This document shows positions 1 through 27,861 of a DNA stretch of 64,000 nucleotides, piece after piece (positions within the stretch are counted from its first letter, which is position 1; each line of letters begins with the position of its first letter). Below the pieces are notes generated by a model that saw only the letters and a list, made by a program, of their open reading frames with translations, did no database searches and was not told the DNA's origin. The DNA lies in contig CM102285.1 of assembly GCA_046563655.1 (NCBI GenBank), positions 10,168,001-10,232,000 of the forward strand. Reading direction: 5' to 3'. A program made the translations under genes and the position numbers. This stretch comes from Yuukianura sp. NJ FZ-2021 (Eukaryota).

Positions 1-10
1 CAAAACTTGC

Positions 11-3000
11 CTTTAGAAAGCCAACAAGGCACGGCTGTGGCTGGGAATTGACTTCTTTTTGTAACCGATCCGAAAAATCTTCCGCATTTACTTTTCCGTC
101 TACTAAACCTTGGATGAGGCCGCGTACATTTCTGGCCACTGTCTGATTTTGCTTCATTGACAGTTCCAGAAGAAATGACAGAAAGTTTTTACATTTCTGC
201 TTTGCAGTATCCGGTGTCATCTACAAAAATGCGGGTAGCAAGGAATTCATTAATCAACTTCATAAAACTGCCCATACCTCCCAAATATAAATTCTCTCAG
301 TCAAACCAAAAAAAGGAATCATACAGAAAAAAAAAAAACTCGAATTTTCAGGATTTTGTCGAGAAATTATAGAAGACCCAGGTCGAATTTTTTCAAATGC
401 TCACTCTTCCTCTCTTCAGTTTTCTACCATCAGTATCTCTCAGCTCTTTACACAAAAAAAGAAAGTCATTGATGAAAAGCTCATCGTCCGAATTTAAATT
501 CGTCCAAAAATCCGAAAAAAGTCCGAATAGAAAATATAAATTCAGGATAAAAAGACATGCTAGTAGCAGCGGCCAGAACAAAACGTTAAGAAAAAGCGAG
601 AGATACGGATGCCAGCATGGGAATGTCGGGGATGCGGATTTTGTTAGTAGTCTGAGACCGTTTTTGCTCATTTATGACATTACTGCGGAGAAATTCCAGA
701 AATGGGGGTTCGTTTTAGTTTTCGTTTAAAATTTACTTTAAAATACTGGACTACCTGGCTAACAGTAGTAGCGGTAGCAGCGATTGCGGATGAGGCAGTG
801 ATGGACGTGAGCACTGAGGAGGGAAGATGGCTGGACAGGGCTTGTGGATGTGGTGGCAGTACAACTGGATGCGGATGCATCTGCTGATGCTGCATTGACA
901 TTGAAGCAGTCATCCCCACACCACTCGGCTGGATATTTTATAATTTCCCATCCAAAAAATATAACAAATCACAGAAAACAAAAAAAAAATTGGTTTCAAA
1001 AATTATGTCTTTGAAAAGAACATTAAAAATCACATTCAATGTAAATCAAAAATTTTGACTTTTAAAAAATTCAGCATGCAGCCAACTTCACACGGCTTGC
1101 TTTTCATAATTGCAAGCAGTTTTCTCTCTACGCTCAATGTGCTTGGACACTTACAACAATTACTCAATTTCTGTAAAGTTAACATTTGAGTTCTTATTCA
1201 TTTCATTCGCTTTTTCAAAACGCGTTTTTTTTAAACGTTGTGCGCATTGACGTTGTTACTGCTCAAGTTTCTCTCACGCCTACTGCACATAAATAACACG
1301 CGGGAATAGCTGAAAACACTCAAGAAACCAAGTTTCGCTAACGATGATGCGCAAAATAATAAAAGTTATGCCCAAGAAGTTTAAAAATAAAAGATGACCC
1401 AACGCATGCACACATCTCAAACGAATGAAAATGAAAGTTTCCCCAAAAGTTAAATTTCAGTTTCATGCAATCTTGAAAGCCAAGACATTTTACATGCTCA
1501 GCTCAAAGGAAATTCACGGGACAGAGAGACAGGAAGGAAGTGTAGAGAGGCAAACAAATCAACAAAGTGCATGCAACAATGAAAGCAATATTCTAAACAA
1601 AAATATAGGAGCAAGGGAATGTGAACAAGGCATTGGAATTTCAAGTAAATTGTTTTTGGGGTGCTTTAAGTAAAAAAAGTAAATGAGGAAGTAGTCGGTA
1701 GTCCAGCCAAAAGAAGTTTTAAAAAGTATTACAGTAAAAGTAAGTAAAAGTTTTGTAAATAGGGTAGTCGAGAGAAAGAGAAGAGCATAAGAAAATATGG
1801 ACCTGGGTGATTCTAGTAGAGACACAAATGGATTTCAACTGTGAATCCAATGTCAAAATTTACCGAATTTGTTATTTGGTAAGTAAAGATCCGGTAAAAA
1901 TTCAAAAATTCAAAACAAATCAATCGTTTAGTACAAGCAATTCCCGCAAATCCTTGAAAACTAATTTTTTTTTTAAAAAAGCCAGAAAATTTCAAAATCC
2001 TTCTTGGGAAAACGAAAACCTGTAGCCGCAAACTGCATAAAACGACATCAAATCGGTTAAAATTAGAAAGTAATAAAAACAATTTTTCGTTTTCTTATGA
2101 AATGTGATAGAAATTCTGAAATTCTCTATTTTTTGGTTTGCTGCTTCTTCGTAATGATCCGTTAAAAATTAAAGAAAAACTGAAAATTGAAGAATATTGA
2201 AAATCAAAACAAAAAGAAGAGAGTTTATGAAAGAAATTGTGAAGAGGCTTGGGTAGACTTACGGAATTGCTGGCTGGAGCGGGTGGGACTGACGGAGTTT
2301 GAAGTCGACTATTGACATTCGGATTCAGAGTGGAAGAATTACTACTATGATTAGTGTTGCTGGATGTAGAAGTAGTCATGGAGGATGAGGCAGGTTGTGA
2401 CAAAGTGGTGGTAGTGGGAACTACGGCGACAGGAACAGAAGTAGGTAGTGGCTTAGGAGTCGTATTTGTCATTACATTGGGGGCAGTCACAACTCCACCA
2501 GAAGACGGTGGATGTTGAGCGTTCATGACTACAAAGGTCGTCTTGGCCGTAGATGGAGTGACATTGGTGGAGGTGGGGCCAGGAGAAGGAGCTGCGGTCG
2601 TGGATGTCAGTGGAACTGGGAATTGTACAACGACAGACGTCGAAACGGGCCCACCAACTACGGCAGGAGGTTGGGAAGAGGACTGCGGTGGGGCTGTGGG
2701 AGTGCCAGTTGCGGCAGTGGGTGCCGATGACGTGGCGGGCGATGGTCCAACTCTCAGAAGTTGGTACTGCCCATTCTCCGTCTTGACGAGGAGATGATGT
2801 CCCTGTGACCCTGGCGGAAGCCCCGGCAAAGCTTGCAGAGTGAATTGCTGCACAACACATACAAAGCACATCCATTAGTCTCCGAGAATAGTTAAAGGTA
2901 CCTACCGTACTCAATCTCCTCATTGCGTCATTGTATTGACAACTATAAGAATTGTACAAATCGTACTCCGGGCGATGGTTGACAGACCCTTGGAGAGGCA

Positions 3001-6000
3001 GGCGCTGATCGGAGAAGGGAGACAGCATGCGGGGGTCAGAGGTGAAAGTATTCTTAGGAAATGAAGGATTTGGGGGGTGAAAGTAGGCTCGTTCATGTCC
3101 ACCACTAGATGGCGGCGGTTCTAACCTACTCCTGATTGGCGTAACTCTACAAACTACCGGATACCCACCACCTCCCCCTGTCCCACCAGAATATCCTACC
3201 GGATGACCTTGACCTGACTGCTGTTCATGACCTACTGAATACCTAATTGGATTAGTTCCATAGTACCCTGATGAGATTGAACTTCCTCGTGGATTAGTAG
3301 TATACTGTGAACTGGGATGATGTTCCCTAGGAATATGACTGGTCGTAGTATGTTGAGCATAAGACGAAGGTGATTGATGAGCAATATGGGGGGAAAGTTG
3401 ACTACTATGACTAGGCCTAATACCTTGACCACTACTACTGCTAGTCCCTCCAAGAATCGGTGGAATTTGACCAACGACTGATGAGTGTGATGGAATTCCA
3501 GGAGTCGGGTAAATAAATTGACTAGATGTTGACGGGTACTTTGGAGAAATAGCCTTATCGTAAGGATCGAACTGTACAGGAGGTGGAGCGTAGGGTAGCG
3601 GTTTTCCAAGGCTGTTTGACGCTGGTCCTTGGAAGTAGTTGCTACCACCGTGAGCATGTCTCATTTGTACTGGCAGTTGAGTAGTAGACTGTGGATAGTA
3701 GTCCGTCGGCACTCTATTTTGCGTTTCCATATTTGAACTAGGTAAAATACTGGCTTGGATTGGTCTATGTGAGACTTGACCGGGCGTCCTAGTGATGTGA
3801 TGAAGCCATGGAGTTGGAGCAGCAACTCGAGACAGTTGCGGTGACGTAGGTGATGGCTTAAGTCTTGGAGACAACTGCGCATGTGCCGGTTGTACCTGAT
3901 GAGGCCGTACGTGTTGATTGTTGCGAAAATTGATTTGGTCGAATTGAGATCTATCAGGAGCAGGTTGTTGATGTGGAATGCTTAAGTTTCTCATTTGTTG
4001 ATTTGAATTTGGCGGGTACAGAGGAGATGCTTGATGGGGTTGATGCATTTGAAGGGGATGTTGTTGCTTCGAAGTAGCGTCGGGGTAAGTAGGTGGATAA
4101 TTTGGCGACATTGTCGCTGAGCCGACGTAGGAACTGTTGTATCGCGGTGAGTGTAAAGGTGGACGAGGTTCTGGAACTCTTATTCCCGCGTATTGATTGT
4201 GATGTGAAGGCGATTGATTAGGAATACTGTTTCGACGTTGCAAGTAGGCTCCAGATACTCCTGAAGTAGGACTGGTCATCACAGGAGAATGAGAAAATGA
4301 AGGCGATTTGTTCATTGGATCTGACGCAGACGCACTGATTTTCCGGACTCTTGGACTTTCTCCAAGGGGATGATTTTCTGTATACTCCAAAAATTGTGAA
4401 TGAAGGCCTGGATCATTTGTAAAAAATGGTTGATGTTGATGATGTTGCGGTTCCGCTTGAGGCTGTGGTGATAAAGACAGTAAGTGATTGTAGTTAAAGT
4501 CCGAAGGACTAAAAGTATTGGCCGAATAAGCACCGTAAGTATTCAATGAAGCGTCAGCAGGTTTTGAGCTAAAATTATTAGTACTGTGATCACGGACGAC
4601 ACGACCCTGCATTTCATGACTCGTACTATGTTGAAACGATGATGATTGCTGGATTTGATGACTTCCTGGAGGATTCGGATACGGTAGAATTTGAACTTGG
4701 ATCTGAGATGGTAATTCCTGATGATGAGGATATGTTTCCGAAGTACGACTTGACCTCTGTAGTACTGGCGAAGTTTGTGGAACTTGAAACGAGTGAGAAA
4801 TGACCGGAGTCACTGATTTTTCTCTCGTCCCGATCGGTTCCGGTTTCGGTGAAACTTGCTTCCCGGTAACAGGAAAGCGGCATGACACGTTTTCTTTTTC
4901 TTCAACCGATTCACTGCAAGCACCACTACTGTTGAAACTTCGTCCAGGATGAGTCTCTTTGACAAAAACTACTTCTGGCTCTGGTTCTGCCGTATGACTA
5001 ATTAATCCTAAATCAGGTGAAGGATTTTGATTGACGAGTAATTGCTCCTCGTAAGGTACAAGCAGCGCAGAAGACTCCGAGGGTTGAAGCTGTGGACTTC
5101 CATTATCACATCTTTCTTCTATTTTGGTCTCATCTTCTTCACTTTCTTTTTCCTTAAGACTTTCTCCACCAGCATCCCCCGGATCATGATCCAGAAGATT
5201 CTCTTGCAGGGCAAACTCCGTTCCAGAACTATCCGGCTCCGAAGGTGTTGGTGGTTGCGATGATCCAGAAATAGTATTGGAACTCATTTTGGGAAAAATT
5301 ATAATGTCACCATGACTTTCGTCAAATACTGTCACAGTAGTTGTAGTAGGCCGTGGAGACGATGCAGATGAGAAACTCAAGCCCTGATTTTCATCTTCCT
5401 GATCCTGACTACCCTTGGGTGATGCTGACCCTACCCGTGACCTCGTAGTACTATCTGGTGGACTCAAGGCTGAAACAGGGATTTGTTGAGAGGTGGTAGG
5501 ACAAGGAGAGGTTATTACAAGGTTAGTAACGGATTCAGTGGTGGCACTCTCACTCTGATTACTAATTGACTTTACGAGAACAGTTGAGCTAGAGACTGAG
5601 AGCGGAGGTGAGTGGGGAACCGTGGGTGAACTCAAAATGGAGTCTTGACACTGAGCAACGTCGTCGTTTTTTGCGTCATCAGCCGTAGGACTGGAAGCAG
5701 CACGAGGACTCAGCTCGTCAGGAGCAGCCGACGCTGACTCCCGGCTGGCAATAGTAGGTTTCTTAAGAAATTCAGACAACTCTGAAGTATATTCGAAAAC
5801 CTGGTATATACATAACGATAGTTTATAACATTAGCAACAATTAAATTTAGAGTTAATGCAACAAGGAGGGTAGGCTGTACTATCTACTTGAACAATGGAC
5901 AAGGACGAACGGGGTGTACTAAATAAACATCCAGTCGCTTCACCACCATTATTCCCGTTTAGCAAACAACATAACCAAGTAACAGTAACGTCAACTTCTC

Positions 6001-7368
6001 AGGCTTGTTTGCAGTAGTGGAACAGTTGAAATTAGAATTAAAAACGGAAGTTTAAGAGACATACTGGGAATATATAGCGACATTTCGATTCCAGTACGGG
6101 CCCAACATCGACACAACAAGGCTGGTTGGCGTTATAATTGAATAATCTATTGAATTAAAAACCGTTAACGTTATAAACCTCAGAATAGACAAATGTTCTC
6201 AGCATCAGCACATATAGGGGTACAGGTTCAAGTGCCCACCACCAACGTTTTTAAGAAAAACCGTGTTAAATTAAGTACCCATTCAGTCCTTCAGTCGTTC
6301 ACACATTTTACCCGAATTTGCCACATTAAGGTACAGGAAACCCGGAAAAGATGTAGTTTTCCCAAGCAAAAACAACACAAGGAGTTAAGTCGACAAATGA
6401 CAAATCAAATTCAACATCATACACTGCTGGAATCAGGTAAGTTGTTAAATTGGACAAAAAAAAACAATAGTAAAACTTTATCTACCCTAACCGTAACCCT
6501 AAGCATATTCTTGGCACAAATTTCATCTCTGCCCATCCGTACAGACGGCTCCAGTCGTGTATTAGCAGCGCTCCCGCATACAACTATTACTGCTTTATCC
6601 TATTCTCACGCTTGGTTCATACGATTTGCTGGACAAAACGGATTCATTATACAATTTTTTACACAATTGAATGATTTATGCTTGAAGTAATAAGTAATGT
6701 TTAACTCCGAGCAATCGATGAACCAAACTGGAGAAAATAGTCAACCTTACTATTTACCGCAATAATACATTATGTAATACTGCTGACAAATACTGCTCCA
6801 GCAAATATTGAGCGAGCGCACGAGCGGTTGGTTGGGTCCTGATACCTTACATAGCACATGTACAGGTAGAAACTGGTGAATTCGCCAATTCTTAAATATG
6901 TACTAGGCAACGGCTATTGGTAAAGTAGTTCTTAATTTTTGCGTAGGTTTTGAATGAAATGCTATGTTGTAAAACCCATTCATCAATTCAACTCTAAACT
7001 GTAAGTGTAAACATTAAAAGCAAAATGTTTTGATCTTTGTATTGCTTCCGTTATGCCTCCCATTCCCATGCTAAAGCTTAACATGCGCTTCCATAAGACA
7101 GGATCCAACCAAACGCTCGACTTTGATAAACGGCTTAAACAGAATAAACAAAGTAAACAATTTGTACTGATGATTGATTAGCTGATCTTTGTAAAGATAA
7201 ACGATAGTTACTAAACTCGGTTGTAAACGTTTTACTTACGCCAGGTTGTCCTGGTCTAGCACCAATCACTTGAGGTCCCAACATTATTCTTGGTGTCGTT
7301 ACTACCTTCGTGGCGATGGTTTGATTTGGGACGACGTTGTTGGTCGGTACTGGTTGGTCCATTTTCAT
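11..7368 (-). CDS. TAF4: TFIID subunit TAF4 (TAF110-like), 5' part; gene continues beyond position 1
   Basis: Spliced exons 7368-7240 (MKMDQPVP...GARPGQPG, gtaagt donor), 2847-2263 (QFTLQALPGLPPGSQGHHLLVKTENGQYQLLRVGP, arthropod TAF4 N-terminal motif), probable cassette 928-755 (58 codons), and 220-11 (MTPDTAKQKCKNFLSFLLELS...NVRGLIQGLVDGKVNAEDFSDRLQKEVNSQPQPCLVGFLK = TAFH/NHR1 domain). All junctions are phase 0. Confidence 0.9.
2906..5800 (-). CDS. Giant 2895-nt (965-codon) alternative exon of TAF4, S/P/Q/H-rich low complexity
   Basis: Core of the 1108-aa ORF 2453-5779. Acceptor ataccag|GTT at 5800 and donor ACG|gtaggt at 2906. A 58-nt intron (2848-2905) joins it in frame to the QFTLQA exon. 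Confidence 0.7.
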
Positions 7369-8451
7369 CTTTAACTAGTTTTAAATAAATGTTGTATAAT
7401 TGGATAAATCGATTATTTGGGGGATAGATGACTGTGACATGACACTGTGGACTGTATTAGAGAGAGACTGACTGTATGGGATGAGAGGGAGAGACAGGAG
7501 ATAGAAGTTTCCAACGACACAGTTGCTCTCCAACTAACAACTCTACGTACTACTTCCTCCAAGGTTTTCTAAAAGGCGCACAACAAAAGCAGCATTTTTG
7601 CAATTTTGCAATGGCTATTCCTCCAATTTGGCAATTCAAATTGATTTAAAGTTGGTCCAAAATTGATAAGTAAATTTATTTATTCACAAGCAAACTTTAT
7701 TAATTAAGATAAAAAGCAAACGATTTTAAACCCAAGAACAAAAAAATCGGTTTTTTGTTGAACAGAGCACCTTGTTAAATTTTGATTTCATATTGCCATG
7801 CCACCCGCACACTAGCAGTATTGTTGTTGTTTTTGAGTTTTGCCATTTTGCAACGTGCGTTTTGCAATTGCCAAATGGTAAAATTGCGAAATGCTTTTGC
7901 ATCATCATCACCCGCCGACCCAAACCACCACAGAAGCCGCCCTCCCCCGTCTCTGTGAATCCTCATCTGCGCCGGCGCAGGAGCTCTACTATTCTACGCT
8001 TCCTTCCTACAATTTAGAATCACAAAAATCCCTCGTCTTTTTTCCGTTCTGTTTTTTTTTGCCAAAGAAGATGCCTATATAAAGTGGAGAAATGCTCTTT
8101 AGGAAGATGAGACTTGGGAGTTGATCCGGAAGATGCTGGGGAGGGTACACTCAGGGTCATGCAGCATGAATGACTCGAGTCATGCTGGACTGGAGGTCAT
8201 AGTTTGATCAATCTTACAAACAATAGCATACTTCAGTTCATCTCAATAAGATTAAAGTAACTTTTTCTTAAAACTGAATGTGTATTTTTGAAAAATAGTC
8301 AGAAAGATTCAGAAATCAGAAACATGAAATCAGTTTGATCAATATCTTTTAGCAATGGCATACCTACCTCTGTGTCTCTACAAGTTTATCGCTACTAAGA
8401 TTTTTTGGAACTGAATCTGTAACGTTAAAGTTGTTGCAATTGCTTTTGGCG

Positions 8452-10469
8452 ATGCCTTCTTCATCTAATACCACAGTTGGTGGGGGAAGTAGTGCCAAAA
8501 AGAGTGCAGGGTCAAAGGTCAAGAGAAAGGTCAAGAAGAAGGACGAAGAAGCAGAGAGAAAGGCCGAGGAAGAAGCACAGGAAGAAAATGAAATTGAATT
8601 CCAAAAGGCATTGTTGGAAGTGCGGGTCAATGAACTGGAAACACTCAATCTGGGGTTAGCAATTTCCAATTTGAGTTGTCTTAAAAAAATTATTGCTTTT
8701 AGAATTAAATCTTGTTTGGATTTAGAACGGAATTGTCAGTCCGATTGGGGTTTGGTTTCAGAAATTATGATTTGAGGAATATATTTCAATTAAACAAAAT
8801 TGTAATAAAAAAAATCTTGCTTTACAAACAGCCTGAAGAGAAAGTCAGACTATTTGGAAAGTCAAAACGACATTTACAAAACACAACTGCAGGAGCTCCG
8901 AACCGAAAAGGAAGAGTTGGTTGGATATTTTGAAAGAGTATGGAAAGAAGAAAAGGTCAAGGTCACCCATTTGGAGGAGAAGGTCAATGCACTCACGGAG
9001 GTAATTTCAAATTTGAATTTTCAATACAAAATTAATTCTTATTCTTATTAAGGCTTCTGCGGCGTGTCTCTAATATCTTGAATTCAGAAAACTCAGAAAT
9101 TCAATTTTAATTCATATTTGACGTCTTTACTTTCACTTTCAACGGCGGCTCTGCGCTTTATACGTACGAAAAATAACAATTTTCGTCTTCACAGTTCTAA
9201 TTTTGACACTTTCGCTATTTCGTTTTCAGGAAATTTCAACTGCAAGGAGTTCCTATCAGCAAGTTTTGGCAAACAAGCAGTTGGAGTTGGCTGAACTGAA
9301 AGCAACATTACAAAAGGAAATCCAGGATTTGGGTAGGTCTTGTACAGATTTTTATAAAAATGAGTTCAATTGTCAATTAAATTAAAACAATGAAATTAAT
9401 TTGAAATCTGAAATTTTAAATTTGCGCAGAGCTGCAGTTAGCAAGGATAGAAGAATTTCGTGTGGAGAAGGATGACCTAACCCAGAAATTTCGAAAATTG
9501 GAACAGACGCTTGAATTTGAACGGAAGGAACATGCTGCTAAATACGAAGCACAGGAAAATGAAGTGATCATTTACAGAGAAACGATCAAGCAGGAAGCTG
9601 TGGAGATGCTTGTCCAGATTTCAAAAGACATTCAAAAAGCTGGGAAACTGTGTTTGAACGGAGCGGTGAAAGCAGCAATTGCAGCCAACGTTGAGCTAAA
9701 ACCAGCAGTAATAACACATTTTAAACTGAAATTGGAATTTCCTTTTGAACAAAATTTTTGTGTGACCTGTGACCTTTGGCCTTTTACATTTTATTGAATT
9801 TGACCTTCATTTTGAATTTTTTAACAGCTTGAAACTGCCAGTAAAGACAATTTGGCCTTACGGGATCGATTGGATAGCGCTGCCCTTGAACTTAAAAAGG
9901 CAAAAGCTACTGCTGCAAAACTGGAACATGCGAAAGCCATTGAACGGAAAAAGTGTAGCCAGTTGACAAGAATTTTACAAATTCTAGCGGAGAAGCAGGC
10001 AAAAATGGACGAGAAAATTAAGAAAGTTACACAAGTTGAGCAAGAATTAAGCAAATTACAAATGCTGCATTCAATGTGCAAATCGGAAGAAGAGATTCAG
10101 AAATTGATTCGATTTAAAACCCGGGATTTGGAGGCAGAAAATGCAGAAATCAAAACTTCAGTCCAAAATTCCATATTTCTAGAAACCGAATTGGGAAAAC
10201 TTCGGTCCATCTTCCTGAAGCTTTCTTTGACCATGAAAGACTTGACTGAGGTGAGACCATGAAATTTTTTCGATCAAATGCTGGGAATCTAATATCAAAA
10301 CTCTGATTTTTAGGCGTCAAATGAAGAAGAATTTGAGTTTTTGTGTCAAAGGTTAAAAGTAATGCTGGGGAAAGTGCATGCGGTCACTTGCGAATTTCCA
10401 AACCTGAGCCAGCAAATGAAATCGCGTCTTATGGTCAACGCTCCTTCGGTTTTGCCATATTTCAAGTAG
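8452..10469 (+). CDS. CFAP157: Cilia- and flagella-associated coiled-coil protein, CFAP157-like
   Basis: Exons 8452-8654, 8832-9000, 9230-9332, 9430-9707, 9828-10250 and 10314-10469 splice in frame with GT-AG. Basic K-rich N-terminus, long coiled coil, and LARIEEFRVEKDDLTQKFRKLEQTL resembling the conserved CFAP157 LxxLEEFRxxKEE segment. Confidence 0.7.
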
Positions 10470-10897
10470 AGGTCATCACAACAAGACAATTTTAACGCAG
10501 GGGTCATCAAGTTAATACAGATGAGTCATTTTGTACATTCCTTTGACATCCTATAAGAAAACCGATCTAGCCATTTACGATTCCTTTGGACAAGAAAATT
10601 AACACCGAAGTTATCTTAACGGGCCTCCTACGCTGTCCATTAGCCAATTTTATACACACGAAATCAAAATGTGCAGTGTATCGAACAAACGCGTAAAACT
10701 TTTTATTGCCTGATGGAACTATACTAGTTTATTTCTGTAGCTTGCCAATTTATAGTCTTTAGGGACATCATATTTTCACCACAAACAATGCAATGTACAA
10801 ACAAAGGACACAATGTCAGGTGAACTGCTCACTGCTGAAGACCAATTCCAAGTCAGAAGAAGCAACGTCTGTCTACAATTCTAACTGAAGTATCATC

Positions 10898-12889
10898 ATG
10901 TTCATTAACTGTCACCCGAGATTCCGGTGTCGCCTCCAATACTCCACTATGGGCCAATGGAAGCATCAAACTCCACATCATACAAGCTCGAATTCAGCAA
11001 ATTGTGAAAAACCTCTGGCCAATCCTAACTCAAAGTCAGTTGCAATTAGACTTACGAGGTTGCCACTGCCAGTAGTAGTCCCGGGTGGTGAAGCAATTAG
11101 ACTAACGAAGTTGCCACTGCCAGTAGTAGTCCCGGGTGGTGAAGCAATTAGACTAACGAAGTTGCCACTGCCAGTAGTAGTCCCGGGTGGTGAAGCAAGT
11201 AGACTAACGAAGTTGCCACTGCCAGTAGTAGTCCCGGGTGGTGAAGCAATTAGACTAACGAAGTTGCCACTGCCAGTAGTAGTCCCGGGTGGTGAAAGTA
11301 CGCTGATTCCGAAAACGATGGAGAGACAAGTACGTCAACCCAACCCAAAGTTAGCCAACCAACAGCGGCCAACCGTCTTATGTCAAAAATCAGTTCAGTC
11401 GTCATGCACTCCAAAGAGAAAGCGCCAACAATCGCTAATACGTCCAATAAATTCCAACGGTTCAGAAGTCACGCCGAAACGGGCATGTGGAACTACTGAG
11501 CATGGGCATGGATCCAATTGCTCCCAAGCTTCTTGTTTGCTACACATGATGGAACATCAAGTTCCGAAAATACCGGACTCAGGTAACCCCGCGAGTACAT
11601 TAGACAAGCAAAACCGCAATACCGAAAAAATTTACGTCTGTAATAACGGCGCCCTCGATTTAACAAAAAAATGTCGCATAACGGTCAATTCGACCCAAAT
11701 GCCGAGTCCTAGAGAAGTTGAAGTTGCTAAAGCCATTGCTATGCTTAACACAATGACGAAACCTCCATCGCTTCCGGCTTCTTCAAATACTTCGCACGCT
11801 GTTCCAGAGTTAGTGAAGCTCCTGCAAAGCACTAATCCTTCACTTCCGGCAAATCCCGAACCAGTCCGGTTTTTCCGAACGCCAGCTCAGCAAAAGGCGG
11901 CAGAGGCACTGGCGAGACGAGAAGTCGCAGAGTCAGCTGAAAGTCGGTTCTGGTGCGGCGGGGCCACGTACAACATTGCCGGTCCATCAACAGATACTGT
12001 ATTAAAACAAACTCCTACAGTGGTCATGCTCAATTCTCTGCCAACTCCTGAACCCACCACGGAAGATGTCAATCTAGAGGTCAACAATCCCGGACAGGTC
12101 ATGCTCGATTCTTCGCAAATTCAGACCATAGAGTCCAGAATCGCTGCGATTTCTGATGAAATGACTGGCACAATGGCTAAACTTGATTTTCTGAAGATTC
12201 AAAAAGAGGCTCTCGAAGAAGCGATGTCCAAAAGAAAATGTGATGAAACGAGATCCAAGCTATCCCTGACCAGTCCGCTCCAGCGTCATATTCATAACCA
12301 GAATAGAGCAGCTTCCGAAGGAGCTCATGAAGCATTTGACCATCTCAAACCACCGCCTCAGGCGATCCCAGTTTACGAAGAACCATTTGACAATGAAAGT
12401 TATCATATCAACCGAAGAACTTTCAGAACTGTTAGGCATTTAGTTGAAGGGCATCTTCGGGGGACAATTGAGACAATCGATTTAGAACACGAATCAAGTG
12501 AACGCAGCAGTTTCCGAAAGGAATCGGAACTACCGAAGGATTCCGAAGCGAGTTCCCCGGAAAACCAACCTAGCTCCCCAAAAAACCGATCAAGTTCCCC
12601 GGAAAACCGATCAAGGTCCCCGGAAAGCCGATCAAGTTCCCCGGAAAATCGATCAAGGTCCCCGGAAAGCCGACCAAGTTCCCCGGAAAGCCGATCAAGG
12701 TCCCCGGAAAGCCGATCAAGGTCCCCGGAAAGCCGATCAAGTTCCCCAGAAAACGAACCAAGTTCCCCGGAAAACGACGAACCTAGTTCCCCGGAAAGCG
12801 AACCTCGTTCCCCGAAAATTGAGCGTGCTTACGCGGACGACGGACCTTATCACTCCGACGATGAGTACGTTAATGAGGTCGTGTGGTAA
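10898..12889 (+). CDS. Intronless orphan ORF, 663 aa, with tandem repeats, a short coiled coil and an SP-heptad tail; start codon uncertain
   Basis: Uninterrupted 2-kb ORF in AT-rich DNA. Both internal repeat arrays keep the reading frame. No recognisable folded domain. Confidence 0.7.
   Translation: MFINCHPRFRCRLQYSTMGQWKHQTPHHTSSNSANCEKPLANPNSKSVAIRLTRLPLPVVVPGGEAIRLTKLPLPVVVPGGEAIRLTKLPLPVVVPGGEASRLTKLPLPVVVPGGEAIRLTKLPLPVVVPGGESTLIPKTMERQVRQPNPKLANQQRPTVLCQKSVQSSCTPKRKRQQSLIRPINSNGSEVTPKRACGTTEHGHGSNCSQASCLLHMMEHQVPKIPDSGNPASTLDKQNRNTEKIYVCNNGALDLTKKCRITVNSTQMPSPREVEVAKAIAMLNTMTKPPSLPASSNTSHAVPELVKLLQSTNPSLPANPEPVRFFRTPAQQKAAEALARREVAESAESRFWCGGATYNIAGPSTDTVLKQTPTVVMLNSLPTPEPTTEDVNLEVNNPGQVMLDSSQIQTIESRIAAISDEMTGTMAKLDFLKIQKEALEEAMSKRKCDETRSKLSLTSPLQRHIHNQNRAASEGAHEAFDHLKPPPQAIPVYEEPFDNESYHINRRTFRTVRHLVEGHLRGTIETIDLEHESSERSSFRKESELPKDSEASSPENQPSSPKNRSSSPENRSRSPESRSSSPENRSRSPESRPSSPESRSRSPESRSRSPESRSSSPENEPSSPENDEPSSPESEPRSPKIERAYADDGPYHSDDEYVNEVVW
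11042..11296 (+). repeat. 51-bp tandem repeat x5 encoding AIRLTKLPLPVVVPGGE
   Basis: Five near-identical copies of gcaattagactaacgaagttgccactgccagtagtagtcccgggtggtgaa. Confidence 0.97.
12551..12820 (+). repeat. 21-bp tandem repeat, about 12.5 copies, encoding heptads (S/R)SPE(N/S)RS
   Basis: Units such as AGTTCCCCGGAAAACCGATCA and AGGTCCCCGGAAAGCCGATCA. One unit carries a 3-nt insertion. Confidence 0.95.
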
Positions 12890-12968
12890 TGCTTGAAGTG
12901 AAAAAGATGACAATTTTTGTTTTATTTAAAAAATGCTCAGATTCAGACATCTCTTGAACTTGTAACAA

Positions 12969-15698
12969 TTAATCTCTAGAAAACCCGACAAATGACCATT
13001 TAGTCTCTAGATTCACTCCTACTCCTGATGTCTCTTGCTTAAATATTTCTGGATACTGGAGCAACAGTGTTTGTATTTCTTCTAGCCTAATGGTTGGTAT
13101 GATTGTTTTGACAAATGACGTAATGTAATCAAGACTTGCTCCGAATGGGTGTACATTTAAGAAGGTTGAAATGATTCCAATGAGTCTTGCTTCTGCGATA
13201 TGTGTAATAGTGGTAATACTAGAAGTATTTGTACTGCTAATGCTAGTTGTGCTTGACCTTGACTTGACTGTAGAATGATTGGTTGTACTACTACTATCAC
13301 AATTAATTTCGATTGTAGATACTTTGCTTGAGTTTTGATTGTCTGTCGTGTCGGATTGCGTCGGGGAAAGTTGGGATGCTGCGAAAGTTCTGCTGCTGCT
13401 TTCACTTGCAATATTCTTGGTGTCAATTGGGAGCTCCAGTTGCTAATTAGTTAAGACAAAAATGTCAATTAGTTAAAAATTCTTCAATTTACTTGTTAAT
13501 TGTAATGCTTGTAATTTTACTCTTTGTAAAGATTGGATTTTAGCATCTCTCTGCTCCAGTTCGCTTTTGACATCAGCCTTGATCAAATCCACTTCGTTTT
13601 TGAACGCTTCGATTTGGCATCGCAAGGAATCATTTTCTTCCTGCAACATACAGAGATGCAGCTTGTGTCAAAATAGCTAAGAAACTTTCCAATTTGTAAC
13701 TCTACAAAACTTTGGAGAAAGTCAAATCTTAAGTAAAGTTAATCTTTGTTTATGTAATGTAACCTGTAGCTGAATGTTTGATTTTTGAGAATCGTCATCT
13801 CCTGTACGTCTTTTTTTCATGTTTGGTTGATCTGAAAAATCTTCTCGATCAGAGTCTGAGAAATCCATGTCATTGTCACTTCCAGCAGCTTCACCGATTG
13901 ATGACAAAATTTCCTAAACAATGTCAATCAAAATTAGGGAATCACCACGGATGTTAAGGTTTTAAAGCACGACTTACCAGCAGTTGCTTTTTCCAAAGGT
14001 CAATGTTTTTCCTCTGTGGTTTGGTAAAGTAGTCCCATGCTTTCTTATGAGAAGCTGCCAGAAAAACTTTCTCGACTTGAGAAACTGAATTTGAAAAAAA
14101 AAGTTATGAAGTTTGTTTGCTATGTTTGAAAATTAATTTGATTTTTGAATTACATTGAATCGATATGCCTTGAATTCTTTGATTAGCCAGTGCTTTCGCT
14201 TTTTTCAGTTCTTCTGCATACTGAGATTTTTCGTTGAGGAGACGCTTAATATGCGAGTTTGTCGATTGAACCATGGAGTAGAACATGGCAGAATTCCTTT
14301 TAGAACAATCTCCACGTTCCAGCCAAGTAATCAAAGTTTGGATTGATTTTCCAAAATGCTCGTTCACTATTTTCAAAGAAAGCAAGATTTTAGAAGAAAA
14401 AAAAAGAGTTCTAGGAAACACTGTTGGGTTGGGACTCGAATTATTGGCCGACCTTTGATATTCTCAGCCAAAGTTATTGCTTCATGTTCCGAGAAGTGGA
14501 CAATAGGCGGTGGACTTGGAGGTAACAATCGCTCTTGTTCCAATCTGTCACGATGTCGCTGTTCACGCTGAAACTGTCGCTGACGACACTCCCATTCATA
14601 CAAATCGTCTCTCGCCTGTGCATAGTCAACATGAAAACGACCCAAGTTAGCAGCATCATTGTTGCTCCCAATGCGAATTCGATATCCAGAAAGTCCAATA
14701 GCCCCATCCACGTAAGATTCATTTTGGAACCGGACGTGACAGAAATTCTTTTTGCTCATGCGCACAGTAGTGATTTCACCACAGTTGTCAAATACTTCAC
14801 GCACCATGTCCTCCGTCATGTTCTCCGGTAGACCACCAACAAATACTGTTCTGCATCCACTCGGCTTCTCTCGGGTTGTTGGTAACGGTGCAACTGGATT
14901 CGGTGGAAACAGGGTGCAGGATTTGCAGTGAATGATTTCTTTTGATGGTTTTCCATTGCTCAGTGACGGCGGTAGTTCTTTTGGTGGCGTTTGAATTGGC
15001 ATACTGTCCAACGGTGGCACTGAATTCTGCAGTGGGGGATGCTGCAAAGGCAGCATCGAAAGCTCAGCTCCCGGCGGGTTGGCCAGAGCCGCTGGCGGAT
15101 GGCCGTTCAAGAAGTTGAGGCCGTAGTACATGTTAGCCTCTCCAAATACTGAGGGTGGGGCAGTCATTCCCATTAAGGGATATCCAAGTCCGCCTAGAAA
15201 TGCAGCCCCGGGCCAACCTGGTGGAGCAACTACTGGGCCACTATGTTGGAGTGGCGATTGTTGGACAATTGCTGGTGACTGTGATTGTACGGATCGGAAA
15301 TCGTCGGAGGAATCGGGGGAAGCGAAGCCATGTTGCGTTGGTTGTTGTTGGTTTAGCGGAGTTGCCGGTGATTGTTGCAGAATTTGACCACTGGCGGCCA
15401 TAATTGGAATGCCAATTCCGATTCCAACATGTCCACCTACAACCAATCAAAAATCATCTTAGAGGCTTAAAGGAAGAAGTAAAATTCGAACAATGGTTTT
15501 TTTTAAGTTAGAAACTTGACTGCTGACAGAGTGTTTACCTGATGCTGGCGCAGCGACCATTCCAATTGTAGGAATTTGACCAAGCGTGATGGGAGACATC
15601 GTGTGGGCAATGACATTCGGTGGATCTGGAATCAATCAATAATCATTTAACACTTTAGATTTTGAACAAAAATGAAAATGAAATCTGAACTTACTCAT
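12969..15698 (-). CDS. ENOX: Ecto-NOX disulfide-thiol exchanger (RRM-containing)
   Basis: Exons 15698-15695, 15625-15539, 15436-14453, 14366-14154, 14084-13978, 13913-13764, 13640-13521 and 13442-12969. Motifs IIHCKSCTLFPPNP, CRTVFVGGLPEN (RRM), HVDYAQARDDLYEWEC, WLERGDCSKRN, AWDYFTKPQRKNID and C-terminal LIGIISTFLNVHPFGAS...KWSFVGF. Minus-strand AATAAA at 12921-12926. Confidence 0.93.
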
Positions 15699-16147: not shown

Positions 16148-17578
16148 ATGTCCAAGTCCATGTGCTCAAATGTGTCAAAAACAACGGGAAATGGAAAATT
16201 GCACTTGAAACTGAGGAGACTAGGAGAGTGGGAGGCTTTCATAGTAATTAACAATGAAACCATGGCTTCAATTAGTCCACTTCTACAACAAAACAAATTG
16301 GATCCGAATCTCTGTTTTCGTGGAACCACCCTCCTGGCAGCAGCTATTCACAGGAACTCTGCAGACATTGTCAAAATGCTGCTGGAGCACGGGGCCAATC
16401 CTAACAAGAAATCAAACGAAAATGATCGCTATGAACCTCCTATTATTACAGCGACGAGGCTCAAGTACCTTCATATCGTCATAATTTTAGCGGAACAAGG
16501 AGCGGATCTAACACAAACGAATTTTTACGGGTAAAAATGTGATTTGAATTATTCTGTTTACTTAATTAAAAGTAATTAAATTACTACTAGAGTTGTTAAC
16601 AACCCGTGTAATTACATGAACAAATTAATAATTGTATTTCCAAGAATAATTGGTTTCAAACGCCTTGGGTCGAGAAATATTTAATCTGAGATGTGAAAAA
16701 CTTTCACCAAGTTCGAAACACAAAACTGAATGAGCAGGGAGAAAAAAAATTTTCCCCAAAACTTATTGTAGTTAATATTTCAGTGTAAAAAAGGCAGTTT
16801 TTTTTTCGTCCAAAAATTTCATAGTTCAGAAAAAAAAATTCGTAACGTTTTGGTTTCGGCAATATTTTGTATGTATTCAACTTTCTTTTCGACTTTCACC
16901 TCTGAATTATTTCGGTTTACTATTTCAGCTTAATTGCATTTTTCGTGGAATTCATATCCAAATTCCGAATATTTTGGTGAATTTGAACCAATACTTATAA
17001 ATACTTTTTAAAAGTTGGTAAAATTGTATGAATCCTGTTATGTTTACAGAGAAGATGCATTATACCAAGCTGTAGTGGCGAATGCTTACGGGATTCTGTC
17101 TTATTTCCTAAGTACAAAACCTCATGGAAGTTGTGTCCACGCTTCCGGAAAACTGTGTCCCATGCAACGAGCAATTTTAGAAGGTGAAAGTTATGCAAGT
17201 AAGCGCAAGTGCTTTCTAATTCTCGTCAAGTACCGCTACACTTGTTCCTGTCACCTCAGTACAAACGAATCTGCACAATTTGCTCACCTCATGACCTACA
17301 AGAATCGAGCTACCCGAAATGACTTGCTCAAGTGGGTTTACCTATCTTTTGGAATCAATCTTCTCCCTTTGGGGTCAACTAAAACGCAGCTAGGCAAGGA
17401 ACTCAATGTCTTACCGTTTCAAATGGTAACACTAACCAACTTAAGTCGAATTTCAATCAGAAGCACAATGTCAAAAGTTGCAAAGGAAAGGAAGCACCCA
17501 CTGGGAGATGAAATTTCCAAGCTTCCGTTACCACCAAAACTGATCCAGTTTGTTCTTATGAGCGAACTTGCAGTGTGA
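16148..17578 (+). CDS. Ankyrin repeat and SOCS box protein (ASB-like)
   Basis: Exons 16148-16530 and 17049-17578 (phase 2). Ankyrin repeats (GTTLLAAAIHRNSADIVKMLLEHGANPN; PPIITATRLKYLHIVIILAEQGAD) and a C-terminal SOCS box (TLTNLSRISIR...ISKLPLPPKLIQFVL). Confidence 0.85.
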
Positions 17579-25604: not shown

Positions 25605-27861
25605 ATGATGCTGAGTTCTCAAGCGGTCGGTCAAAGACCTGTCCAACCCGTGGTAAGCATAAAACCAATTAACACGGTGTTGAAAATGTGTATTACAATG
25701 AACTCAGAACTGATTCCAATTTACTTTTTTCATTCTAGGCGTATACTCCTACATTTGGTAAAGATGAAGTGATAAACTGGTTTCGAAATGCTCCTGGGTC
25801 TACACGGATAGACACAATGTGTTGTCTTTTGAATTGCTGTCTCCCTTTTGAAATCCGTTTGATTGGAACAGTACTAGAAACGTTTGGGAGGAAGGAATTT
25901 CACCAGTTACGCGAAATGACTGACAGGGCAAACAAGCCGGGAAGAAGAGGAACGGGAAAAACGCTTGATGAATGTGTGGCTACATTTTATGAAAGCATAA
26001 AAGGCAAGGACGACGATGTTCGAAGAGGTAGCTCGGCCGTATCCCAGAACTCAAATACCTCAGCAACATCCTCTACTAGTTCGACAACAACCAATGTCAA
26101 TGCTCCAACGATTAATGCCAATCCTCAAACGCATTTAAATCCGAATTTTACTGCAAAACCCCTAACCAGTCATCAACTTCAACCCCAACCTCTGAGCAGC
26201 GGTGAGATAGACCATAACTTTACATCCGTTCTTGGGATTTTTGATTCTTTGTCTTCCCTCTTCAGCGTTTCGTTTACTCAAGTTTCATTTTTTTTCCAGT
26301 TGTAGCACAAGAGACTTCACAGTCGAACCGTCCTATCGCAGCTCACAAGACTGAGCCGATGCGATCCCTTCAAGTCTACGAGCCACCTCAACTTCGGCAG
26401 CAGATTCAAAGAAATCATTCTCCTGCTGTTGCTGCTCCCACGCCTATTCCTCAGCCAATTGTAAACGGAATTGGTACTGGAAAGCGGAGTAATTGTAGTT
26501 CAGAAGATGAAAACGAGTCTTCAACAAAAGATTACCGTGTTCTCGAGAATAAAGTTACAAGGCAGAAGATTATACTCTACTTGTCTCTTCTGTCCTCAAC
26601 TAATCATGAAGCAGCCCTGGTGTACTACTCTCTAATATCCCAAGTTAACAAAACGGTGGGTGACAGTGACTGGATGGAGCAAGAATCCGAAGCAACGCTG
26701 GAGGAAGTTACGCTTCTCTATACAATAGGTATTCACCATCCAGCCTTTTCCTACGAACAGCGGCTGATGCTCTCCGAAATCCTTGTCAAGGTTCGCCGCG
26801 AACTCCAGCGAAAGAAGAGTCAAGCATATGCTCAGCAGGTTTTTTCGCCTGTCCAGGCAAGTCCCTGTTCCTTTATTAATCTTCTGTAAGTACATCAATC
26901 GATAACGTCACAACGTACGGTTTACGCAGCACCGGAATAAGTTGAGAAAATTACTTAATCAGCGTTTATAATTGATCTTACATGTTTGCGACCTTGTTCT
27001 TCTATTTTACTCATTCGAAGTTTGATTTTTCAGGGTTTCGAGTCGCAGTACCCACATCACGGCCAGCAGTTATACTTTCATATACCATCTAGTATGACAC
27101 CACCTCATCTTCATTCTTCTCTACCATCATTGGAGCACATTGGGACTCCACCTCCGCAGCTTCCAGCTCAAGGAAGTTCTGGAGGACCACAAGGAATTCC
27201 AAATGCTTTGACTCGCCCTGTTCCACTTGTTGACACATCAAGACTACCTCCCGCGCCACAAATTAGTTATTATCAAACACTACCGTTTCCTCCATACCCT
27301 GGAATGCAAGGCATGGGAACAAGTACACATCCTCAGAATCCAGCGTACATCAGTGCTCCGCCACTTGTTACAAATGTTGGGCAGTTGAGCGGTGCGATTC
27401 GGTCTAGTTCGCCGAACAATATTCCAGCTCCTGCCCATGGAAATGACGGTAAGCCATCGAAGTTCACTTCAAATGATTCGGCAACTAATCACATCAAACA
27501 TTAAATTAATTATTGTTTTAGCAGGAGCAGTACCTCCTAGTGCCAAGGTGGAGAAGCTACCGCCACCACTTTACGAAAAGATACCCGCTCCATCTTTAGA
27601 ACCAGCCCCCAATTTTCCAGTTAGTCGACCTGAGAAGGTGTCTTGTTTTAACTGTGGTCATCAGGGGCATTCTGGAGTTGAATGTGAGCTAGCGTCCATT
27701 GAGCAGATGAGTCATCGTAAGTTGTTGCTTTTTACATATCTAACTAAGTTAGTAACTTACAACAAATTATGATCTTTGGGTACTAACTCGTTTCTTTTTT
27801 GTGTACAGATTTATTTCGCCTGAAATACGAGGATAATAACAATAAGAACGCGAATAATTAA
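25605..27861 (+). CDS. ZCCHC14: Zinc-knuckle protein of the ZCCHC14/ZCCHC2 family (compact, about 575 aa)
   Basis: Exons 25605-25652, 25739-26201, 26300-26856, 27034-27448, 27522/27525-27716 and 27809-27861. N-terminal VINWF...RIDTMCCLLNCCLPFEIRLIGTVLETFGRKEFHQLR, HPAFSYEQR, and C-terminal SCFNCGHQGHSGVEC...FRLKY. Confidence 0.82.

Follow-up and report, generated by a model that had tools for sequence, protein, structure and literature searches.

TAF4 is a structural core of TFIID, in the machinery by which transcription is started. Giant, mostly disordered alternative exons that carry short docking motifs are known from the ankyrins ANK2 and ANK3, which are scaffold proteins; these are cytoskeletal, vertebrate and unrelated in sequence to the exon described here, and serve as an analogy only.

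Alternative splicing of mammalian TAF4 was treated in PMC4200853 and PMC3788782. As here, one gene gives isoforms with altered cofactor-binding parts; however, the variants in the accessible part of PMC4200853 are premature stops and deletions within TAFH or another domain, with no gain of about 1000 residues and no exchange of an exon in the N-terminal part. Tissue-specific TAF paralogues, namely mammalian TAF4b and Drosophila nht, can, mia, sa, and rye (PMC4200853, accessible part), resemble the present case in that a variant TFIID is a possible outcome, but they are separate genes, whereas in this genome TAF4, TAF12, TAF5, and TAF6 were each traced to one locus by family searches. These counts are lower bounds (at least one locus each), as fast-evolving paralogues could escape, and fit the absence of a paralogue set. 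As far as the accessible parts of the cited papers go, variants of TAF4 or TFIID arise from paralogues or splicing deletions. The glutamine-rich disordered region of human TAF4 binds Sp1 (PMC7610059, accessible part). It is a model for how the new exon might act, as a disordered region N-terminal of TAFH that makes protein contacts. Unlike it, the exon described here is rich in serine and proline, with only 7.6% glutamine and an acidic first third, and no sequence relation was seen.

In the springtail Yuukianura sp., a stretch of 64,000 nucleotides (the window) was analysed. Judged from sequence, a greatly enlarged and largely unstructured TAF4 is probably produced in springtails, with a giant exon, called G, either added to the normal next exon or put in its place.

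The TAF4 gene around exon G

The features of the locus, all on the minus strand, are as follows.

7240..7368 (-): TAF4 exon A, 43 codons, ending RPGQPG, with a phase-0 donor GTAAGT
5801..7239 (-): intron between A and G, 1439 nt
2906..5800 (-): giant exon G of 965 codons, both ends in phase 0, present once in the genome
5765..5800 (-): motif M1, VxEYxSE[LF]SEFL, with which G opens (codons 1–12) in each of the three species compared
5300..5320 (-): ESHGDII, common to Folsomia only
4382..4423 (-): motif M2, FTxDxxLxSQFLxY, in which the three species agree at 9 of 14 positions
3131..3163 (-): motif M3, [YH]P[VLI]VCRV[TSP]PIR
2918..2941 (-): motif M4, near the 3' end of G, the weakest of the four
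2848..2905 (-): gap between G and B, 58 nt, GT-AG ends, exon B in frame after its removal
2453..2455 (-): stop reached if the gap is retained, by read-through of exon B in a shifted frame
2263..2847 (-): exon B of 195 codons, phase 0 at either end, QFTLQA...KTENGQYQLLRVG
755..928 (-): exon C (PSGVGM...TTVSQ), which has 58 codons and phase 0/0
11..220 (-): first of the TAFH exons; a GC-AG intron comes next

Exon G spans 2895 nt, or 965 codons, with an AG at 5802-5801 directly 5' of the block and the donor GTAGGT at 2905; thus, the phase-0 acceptor at 5800 and phase-0 donor at 2906 of the original prediction were borne out. The ORF that holds G runs from 5830 to 2453 on the minus strand and measures 1125 aa from stop to stop, or 1115 codons from the acceptor; the 1108 aa first reported for it are a count from a TTG at 5779. 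Each of the exons A, G, B, and C has phase 0/0. As exon A ends in phase 0 and G is symmetric, G can be included or skipped without a frameshift, as had been proposed, and joint inclusion of G and B causes none either.

Exon A is probably the first coding exon of TAF4, and it is much shorter than the 273–364 aa that precede the same junction in Folsomia and Allacma. A search for the N-terminal motif usual in TAF4 found it neither in the 682 kb examined nor with one genome query, run without a positive control in that genome. The acceptor of the A–G intron is weak, in the 3rd percentile of predicted short-intron acceptors; it resembles several constitutive TAF4 acceptors and ranks 6th of the 269 AG sites in 2800–7300. 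Exon B bears the widely conserved TLQ...KTENGQYQLLRVG motif. The TAFH domain (PF07531, E 3.4e-24) was found at the left edge of the window, and the remaining TAFH and histone-fold exons lie just beyond that edge, where PF05236, the C-terminal TAF4 histone-fold family, gave four exon matches above cut-off. The core of this TAF4 clusters with those of Allacma and Folsomia at 100/99.

Counterparts in two springtail orders

The search with G itself was empty in several collections: no Pfam family matched, phmmer over 1.84 billion representatives and the ESM Atlas gave nothing, and neither did a word search over proteins of 530–1689 aa, a range that both true orthologues exceed in length. A search with exon B returned 55 TAF4 proteins, none from a named springtail. 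The orthologous inserts were found through the TAFH exon, among proteins of up to 2000 residues. In Allacma fusca, the 1849-aa protein CAG7706731.1 ("unnamed protein product") has a 778-aa insert after the same PGQPG junction, and in Folsomia candida the RefSeq isoform X1 (XP_035703143.1 / XP_035703148.1, 1828 aa) has one of 1034 aa; both proteins are automatic gene models rather than reads, and X1 is no described isoform. The name "protein lingerer" given to X1 was rejected, as Pfam finds only TAFH and TAF4 in it; lingerer/UBAP2L would be expected to carry non-TAF4 domains of the UBA type.

Pairwise similarity of G to these inserts is weak (best E 7.5e-6 and 3.6e-4) and stops at the donor of G, at M4. 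Four short motifs, two of them at the exon ends, nevertheless occur in the same order in all three species. With scores derived from the two other species, every motif of G beats 2000 of 2000 shuffles, and M1–M3 are each the sole match at that score among 1,363,996 six-frame positions (two matches for M4), with motif limits that were set after the alignment had been viewed. In a three-way global alignment of G against the whole proteins, M1 and M3 came out in the wrong places, and it was set aside. Of fourteen metagenome matches to the M3 pattern, two loci were kept; both are short frames without other TAF4 match, one of them opposite a long prokaryote-like ORF, and they were rejected as chance.

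Folsomia X1 thus resembles the present gene in its TAFH and TAF4 domains, the insert at PGQPG and M1–M4 in order; it differs in an N-terminus of 273 aa, which is longer, in diverged spacers and in an insert that replaces B in the model. In that species, isoform X1 has G whereas X2 and X3 lack it. X1 and X2 have 273 N-terminal residues and 521 C-terminal ones in common, and their sole difference is G versus B: X1 joins G to the exon C counterpart in place of the QFTLQA/KTENGQ exon. X3 skips the exon C counterpart. The Allacma model has the insert with M1–M4 at the same junction and the usual long N-terminus, here 364 aa, and reads G and then QITLQ, so that both G and B are kept; no short Allacma isoform was found in the protein collection searched (cluster of one).

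Because inserts lie at the same junction and carry the four motifs in order, G is very probably an ancient alternative internal exon of the single springtail TAF4 gene. The proposal of an alternative coding exon in TAF4 is in this way supported by the models of two further species, with the Folsomia isoforms showing both states. The position and boundaries of the exon are conserved, in gene models, across two springtail orders, and the Entomobryomorpha/Symphypleona split is older than about 300 Ma according to preprint crown dates. What is new is the recognition of the conservation and the swap, not the sequence class, as the exon is already contained in two automatic models, one of them misnamed. 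Among the matches listed in a literature search, the scope of which left out most subscription papers, none dealt with a giant TAF4 exon or springtail TAF4.

Alternative readings and the junction of G with exon B

Three other origins of the open frame, namely a nested same-strand gene starting from an internal ATG, a transposon and a chance ORF, are together very improbable. In their favor, database-wide searches with G found no relative and no Pfam domain, and other ORFs of 768–1080 codons are present elsewhere in the 682 kb. A nested gene was rejected because M1, conserved at the acceptor, lies 171 codons ahead of the first Met of G (codon 172) and would be read only if G is spliced from A. 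A transposon was rejected on copy number and Pfam families, as the genome DNA search with G gave one match and no Pfam family was found; tandem repeats were likewise not found inside G. A chance ORF was rejected because the coding frame has 0 in-frame stops over G, compared with 30–84 in the other five frames, and the longest ORF among 500 shuffles was 223 codons. The match of the exon ends across two orders argues against all three. The codon score of G was +0.26, against −0.45 to −0.67 in the flanking introns, under a model trained on unannotated long ORFs, which favours such composition. A terminal or poison exon was given equally slight credence. If the 58-nt gap were retained, the frame would continue open for 150 codons beyond the donor to the stop at 2455, giving a protein of 1158 aa that lacks both TAFH and the histone fold, or leading to nonsense-mediated decay; human TAF4 yields many premature-stop splice forms (PMC4200853, accessible part). 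Nevertheless, cross-species similarity ends at the donor and not beyond, and both other models continue from G to TAFH and the histone fold. No AATAAA or ATTAAA was found on the minus strand in 900–7400, a weak point, as the 710 nt past the TAF4 stop are also without one.

The remaining question is whether G is joined to B or replaces it. A swap, with G spliced to C and B left out, has about an even chance of being used in this species. A purely additive cassette, with A-G-B-C (1725 aa) set against A-B-C (760 aa) and the swap peculiar to Folsomia, is a serious contender of somewhat lower probability; its long form would retain the conserved exon-B motif and add a disordered arm. The Allacma model reads in this way, which counts against the swap, but it might chain adjacent alternative exons, and gene predictors often string neighbouring alternative exons together. 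For the swap stands Folsomia, where the sole RefSeq form with G lacks B. The Folsomia lengths fall with isoform number (1828, 1005, and 965 aa); if RefSeq numbers isoforms longest first, no slot is left for a G+B form of 2039 aa. Against the swap, a protein of that size would exceed the 2000-residue limit of the orthologue search.

The gap itself bears on both readings. The predicted 58-nt intron does have GT-AG ends and keeps the frame, but it is not typical of this genome as had been stated: among introns predicted ab initio with a codon-aware caller, 3 of 155 are of 58 nt or less (median 84), and the gap is shorter than all nine short homology-defined TAF4 introns (61–135 nt); its GC content is also higher (0.41 against 0.21–0.36). 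The caller, used instead of a plain histogram of donor–acceptor distances that proved too noisy, recovered two of the nine above its top threshold and four at any score. In a branch-point-like CTAAT the A lies at 2875, a distance of 31 nt to the donor; of the 76 predicted introns that contain a motif of this kind, 3 have a shorter distance, though branch-point calls are crude. Short size and high GC speak against the additive cassette. For the swap speak the position of the gap at the small end of the intron size range and the nearby branch-like A; a short donor–branch distance is known to cause mutual exclusion of exons (PMC5740500, accessible part). On the other side, the donor is ordinary (36th percentile of predicted introns; acceptor, 19th), and another 58-nt intron with good scores is predicted elsewhere in this genome. 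Because of that donor and that intron, the gap can probably be spliced, and its minimum size may even reflect selection for staying spliceable. The human 50-nt rule need not apply in a short-intron genome.

Of 103 inverted repeats, the 25 longest include no strong RNA duplex bracketing G or B, and Rfam gave no match over 1–14000 of the window. G and B may act as a swap, but they are not a duplicated-exon cluster: they differ in length (965 versus 195 codons), and the Allacma and Folsomia G regions did not match exon B by tblastn. The start of exon B matched only designed beta-trefoils among PDB sequences, through summed repeats, and these were rejected.

A predicted disordered arm with putative docking sites

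The first third of G is acidic (D+E 15.9%), and the remainder is rich in P, S, Q, H, and Y; proline makes up 14% of the C-terminal two thirds. The composition first described for G, an acidic region followed by one rich in Q/H/P/S/Y, was confirmed, whereas its prion-like character in the Q/N sense was not. A Q/N prion-like domain has at least 30 Q+N in 80 residues; the maxima are 22 here and 21 and 25 in the other species, and a classical prion domain was rejected for all three. G is predicted to be disordered low-complexity sequence. The suggested disorder check agreed, as a FoldIndex-type score was below 0 in 78%, 77%, and 84% of scoring windows in the three species; the predicted structure had a pLDDT of 33 and no helices, weak evidence given its single-sequence input.

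As modelled for Folsomia, the default mRNA would skip G and encode A-B-C-core, 760 aa here. Use of the weak G acceptor would join A in frame to G, as in the models of both other species, and G would then most likely be joined to C without B, the arrangement of Folsomia X1, for a product of 1530 aa. The cramped 58-nt gap may favour exclusion of B, and the A-G-B-C form may be made as well. Such a long form would retain TAFH and the histone fold and, from TAF4 biology, should pair with TAF12 in TFIID, with G as a long disordered arm and its conserved motifs as putative docking sites. A swap would trade the usual conserved N-terminal motif for different contacts, so that G perhaps displaces the most conserved N-terminal motif of TAF4. 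If so, a protein-doubling alternative exon kept in two springtail orders would be another way of varying the basal machinery. The full scenario is tentative and rather doubtful: a springtail-wide splice switch in the sole TAF4, kept since before the Entomobryomorpha/Symphypleona split, that trades the widely conserved N-terminal motif exon for a disordered arm of about 1000 residues with four fixed docking motifs and builds a stage- or germline-specific TFIID through splicing, a task for which paralogues serve in flies and mammals. Folsomia candida is a laboratory species whose RNA data could bear on this switch.

M1–M4 stand out from diverged sequence and are precise targets for binding assays. 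The TAFH-binding motifs are D-phi-phi-X-X-phi-phi for TAF4-TAFH and (D/E)-phi-X-phi-phi in the case of ETO-TAFH (PMC7948954). The former had no match in any G block of the three species, and the latter none at a position common to them. A complex prediction for Allacma M1 with TAFH scored 0.02, which gives no answer either way. M1 itself matches (D/E)-phi-X-X-phi-phi in all three species.

The TAF4 gene and its giant exon

The block under study, here called G, lies between exons A and B of the TAF4 gene. The phase-0 acceptor at 5800, the donor at 2906, the 58-nt gap and the in-frame exon B of the original prediction were all found in the sequence.

Exons and splice sites around G
7368-7240, minus: exon A, 43 codons, donor GTAAGT
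5802-5801, minus: acceptor AG before G
5800-2906, minus: block G, open over 2895 nt (965 codons)
2905, minus: donor GTAGGT after G, then the 58-nt gap
2847-2263, minus: exon B, QFTLQA...KTENGQYQLLRVG

Downstream of B lie exon C (928-755, minus) and the exons for the TAFH domain and the histone-fold family; A, B, C and this core joined gave 760 aa. Exons A, B and C and the block G each begin and end in phase 0, so the frame holds in A-G-B-C (1725 aa), in A-G-C (1530 aa) and in variants that lack C.

The coding frame of G contained no stop, versus 30-84 stops in each of the other five frames, and the longest ORF over 500 shuffles was 223 codons. Across 682 kb of the contig, 50 non-overlapping ORFs had at least 200 codons; the enclosing ORF (1125 aa, stop to stop) headed this set, with 1080, 876 and 768 behind it, so G is not the only large open block in the region. 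The codon score of G (+0.26) was close to the +0.32 of exons A and B, while the flanking introns scored -0.45 to -0.67, under a model trained on unannotated long ORFs and so biased toward similar composition. The genome contained one DNA match to G.

Family searches of the genome returned one locus each, as lower bounds, for TAF4, TAF12, TAF5 and TAF6. In a tree of 12 rows, from which 3 of the 14 named database proteins were dropped because the anchor pattern was unmatched, the TAF4 core clustered with Allacma and Folsomia at 100/99, which points to a springtail as the most likely source. A second TAFH-domain gene (L072, G000:C4:113744-116920) presumably resembles nervy/ETO. The junction PGQPG was preceded by 43 codons here vs 273 aa in Folsomia and 364 aa in Allacma. 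The usual TAF4 N-terminal motif, present in 62 of 99 TAF4 proteins compared, was not found in 682 kb of the contig, and one whole-genome query was also empty. The short N-terminus (7240-7368, upstream to 8450, minus) is either a real truncation or the result of a missed exon. The first TAFH exon is followed by a 71-nt intron (window 10 to the adjoining locus L002) that opens with GC, being a GC-AG intron. A further alternative exon is C, whose 40-aa orthologue is missing from Folsomia isoform X3.

Counterparts of G in other springtails

Searches with G alone (Pfam, word search, ESM Atlas and phmmer over representatives) found no relative. With the TAFH exon as query, 57 candidates yielded 47 proteins, headed among the named ones by Allacma fusca TAF4 (CAG7706731.1, 1849 aa) and two Folsomia candida isoforms (965 and 1828 aa). 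The RefSeq name 'protein lingerer' of the 1828-aa isoform (P0059; XP_035703143.1, XP_035703148.1) was rejected, its only Pfam domains being TAFH and TAF4. Right behind PGQPG, an insert of 778 aa was present in Allacma and one of 1034 aa in Folsomia; the exon is already contained, unrecognised, in two automatic protein models. As Folsomia has isoforms with and without it, the proposal that G can be included or skipped was supported, and G is very likely a real, conserved alternative TAF4 exon.

Overall, G resembled these inserts weakly, with best pairwise E values of 7.5e-6 and 3.6e-4; all three open with an acidic stretch that gives way to near-neutral sequence richer in tyrosine. Four short motifs occurred in the same order: M1 (VxEYxSE[LF]SEFL) occupies the 12 opening codons, M2 and M3 lie at 43-48% and 87-92% of the length, and M4 sits at the end. 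When the profiles were built from Allacma and Folsomia alone, the top score of each motif in G exceeded all 2000 of 2000 shuffles, and in a six-frame scan of 1,363,996 positions M1-M3 were unique at their score and M4 had two positions; both figures are flattered by motif limits set after viewing the alignment. The match in position and at both exon ends forms stronger evidence than these statistics. Since the first Met of G is codon 172, M1 is translated only when spliced from A. Among 99 annotated TAF4 proteins longer than 300 aa, a set outside which an unannotated G-like exon beyond springtails could exist, only the Allacma and Folsomia long forms exceeded 1400 aa or scored high for M1-M3. 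Folsomia belongs to Entomobryomorpha and Allacma to Symphypleona. With crown Entomobryomorpha at ~346-300 Ma in the available text of a preprint (10.64898/2026.07.05.736609), G should be older than ~300 Ma.

Exchange of exon B or addition to it

The original A-G-B-C joining was found in the Allacma model, but Folsomia X1 reads A-G-C, with X2 as A-B-C and X3 as A-B. X1 and X2 had 273 residues before and 521 after this point in common, differing solely in G vs B. A Folsomia form with both would have 2039 aa, and the TAFH-exon search covered proteins up to 2000 residues. RefSeq usually assigns isoform numbers longest first; the numbers here fall with length, which counts against such a form.

It is about as likely as not that G is swapped for B in this species. 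The gap between them, originally called typical of this genome, proved atypically short: only 3 of 155 predicted introns were 58 nt or less (median 84), and the nine short TAF4 introns defined by homology were 61-135 nt, with GC of 0.21-0.36 vs 0.41 in the gap. A branch-like A lies 31 nt from its donor; of the 76 predicted introns carrying a motif of this kind, 3 had a smaller distance. Among the causes of mutual exclusion in humans is a donor-branch distance below 50 nt, according to the available part of PMC5740500. These points and Folsomia X1 argue against pure addition with B kept, which is nevertheless possible at somewhat less than an even chance, as the Allacma model carries both exons, the donor of the gap is ordinary (36th percentile), another predicted 58-nt intron scored well, and the 25 longest of 103 inverted repeats included no strong duplex bracketing G or B. 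Also against the swap, the caller recovered only 2 of the 9 known introns above its top threshold. Exon B matters because its motif was found in 34 of 44 TAF4 proteins longer than 300 aa retrieved without exon B as query.

The A-G intron holds a 21-nt inverted repeat (6821-6841 / 7099-7119, 90% complementary, 257 nt apart), bracketing neither exon. Two high-scoring candidate introns of 37 and 43 nt (G000:C3 near 10279158 and 10302028, plus), below the main size edge of ~58-60 nt, may be false calls.

Possible role of G and neighbouring features

By charge-hydropathy score, 78% of G windows were predicted disordered; pLDDT was 33 in a single-sequence prediction, which is weak evidence. Disorder aside, the description "prion-like" holds only loosely, as Q+N reached at most 22 per 80 residues and proline made up 14% of the C-terminal two thirds. 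Short fixed motifs amid diverged spacers would be the usual sign of docking sites. In the text available, human TAF4 contacts Sp1 via disordered Q-rich regions (PMC7610059) and pairs with TAF12 through the histone fold (PMC7948954). Because the long form retains TAFH and the histone fold, it would enter TFIID and present an altered set of contacts. In all three species M1 conforms to acidic-phi-X-X-phi-phi, a pattern without a second match in the G of this species, and it matched neither of two TAFH-binding patterns listed in the accessible part of PMC7948954.

As far as the available text of PMC4200853 goes, mammalian TAF4 isoforms are deletions or premature stops; tissue-specific TFIID is made with separate paralogues such as TAF4b and nht, in contrast to the one TAF4 locus here (a lower bound). 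Among the papers listed in literature searches, none dealt with a giant TAF4 exon; an Allacma paper (10.64898/2026.09.14.751372), in its available part, concerns a later assembly than the model used. New here are the occurrence of such an exon in a core TFIID subunit, its retention across two springtail orders along with four fixed motifs, and its possible exchange for exon B.

Other features in the window
8453-10470, plus: multi-exon coiled-coil gene, head to head with TAF4, start codons ~1.1 kb apart
10889-12889, plus: S/P/E-rich ORF, 666 codons, 51-nt unit x5 and 21-nt unit x12.5
14373-15446, minus: RRM, Pfam match
17012-17578, plus: SOCS box, Pfam match
25739-26305, plus: Vts1-like, Pfam match
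36301-37653, minus: 450-codon ORF flanking the HOIP UBA match
37674-38225, minus: HOIP UBA pair, Pfam match
39711-40847, minus: 378-codon ORF flanking the HOIP UBA match
41248-41838, minus: B-box, weak Pfam match

The coiled-coil gene had no Pfam family over the cut-off, and its atlas leads were weak (GAS, and DUF4515 in 11% of one cluster); it may resemble CFAP157-type flagellar proteins. The 666-codon ORF matched no Pfam family. Both ORFs beside the HOIP UBA match, of 450 and 378 codons, may belong to that gene as large exons.
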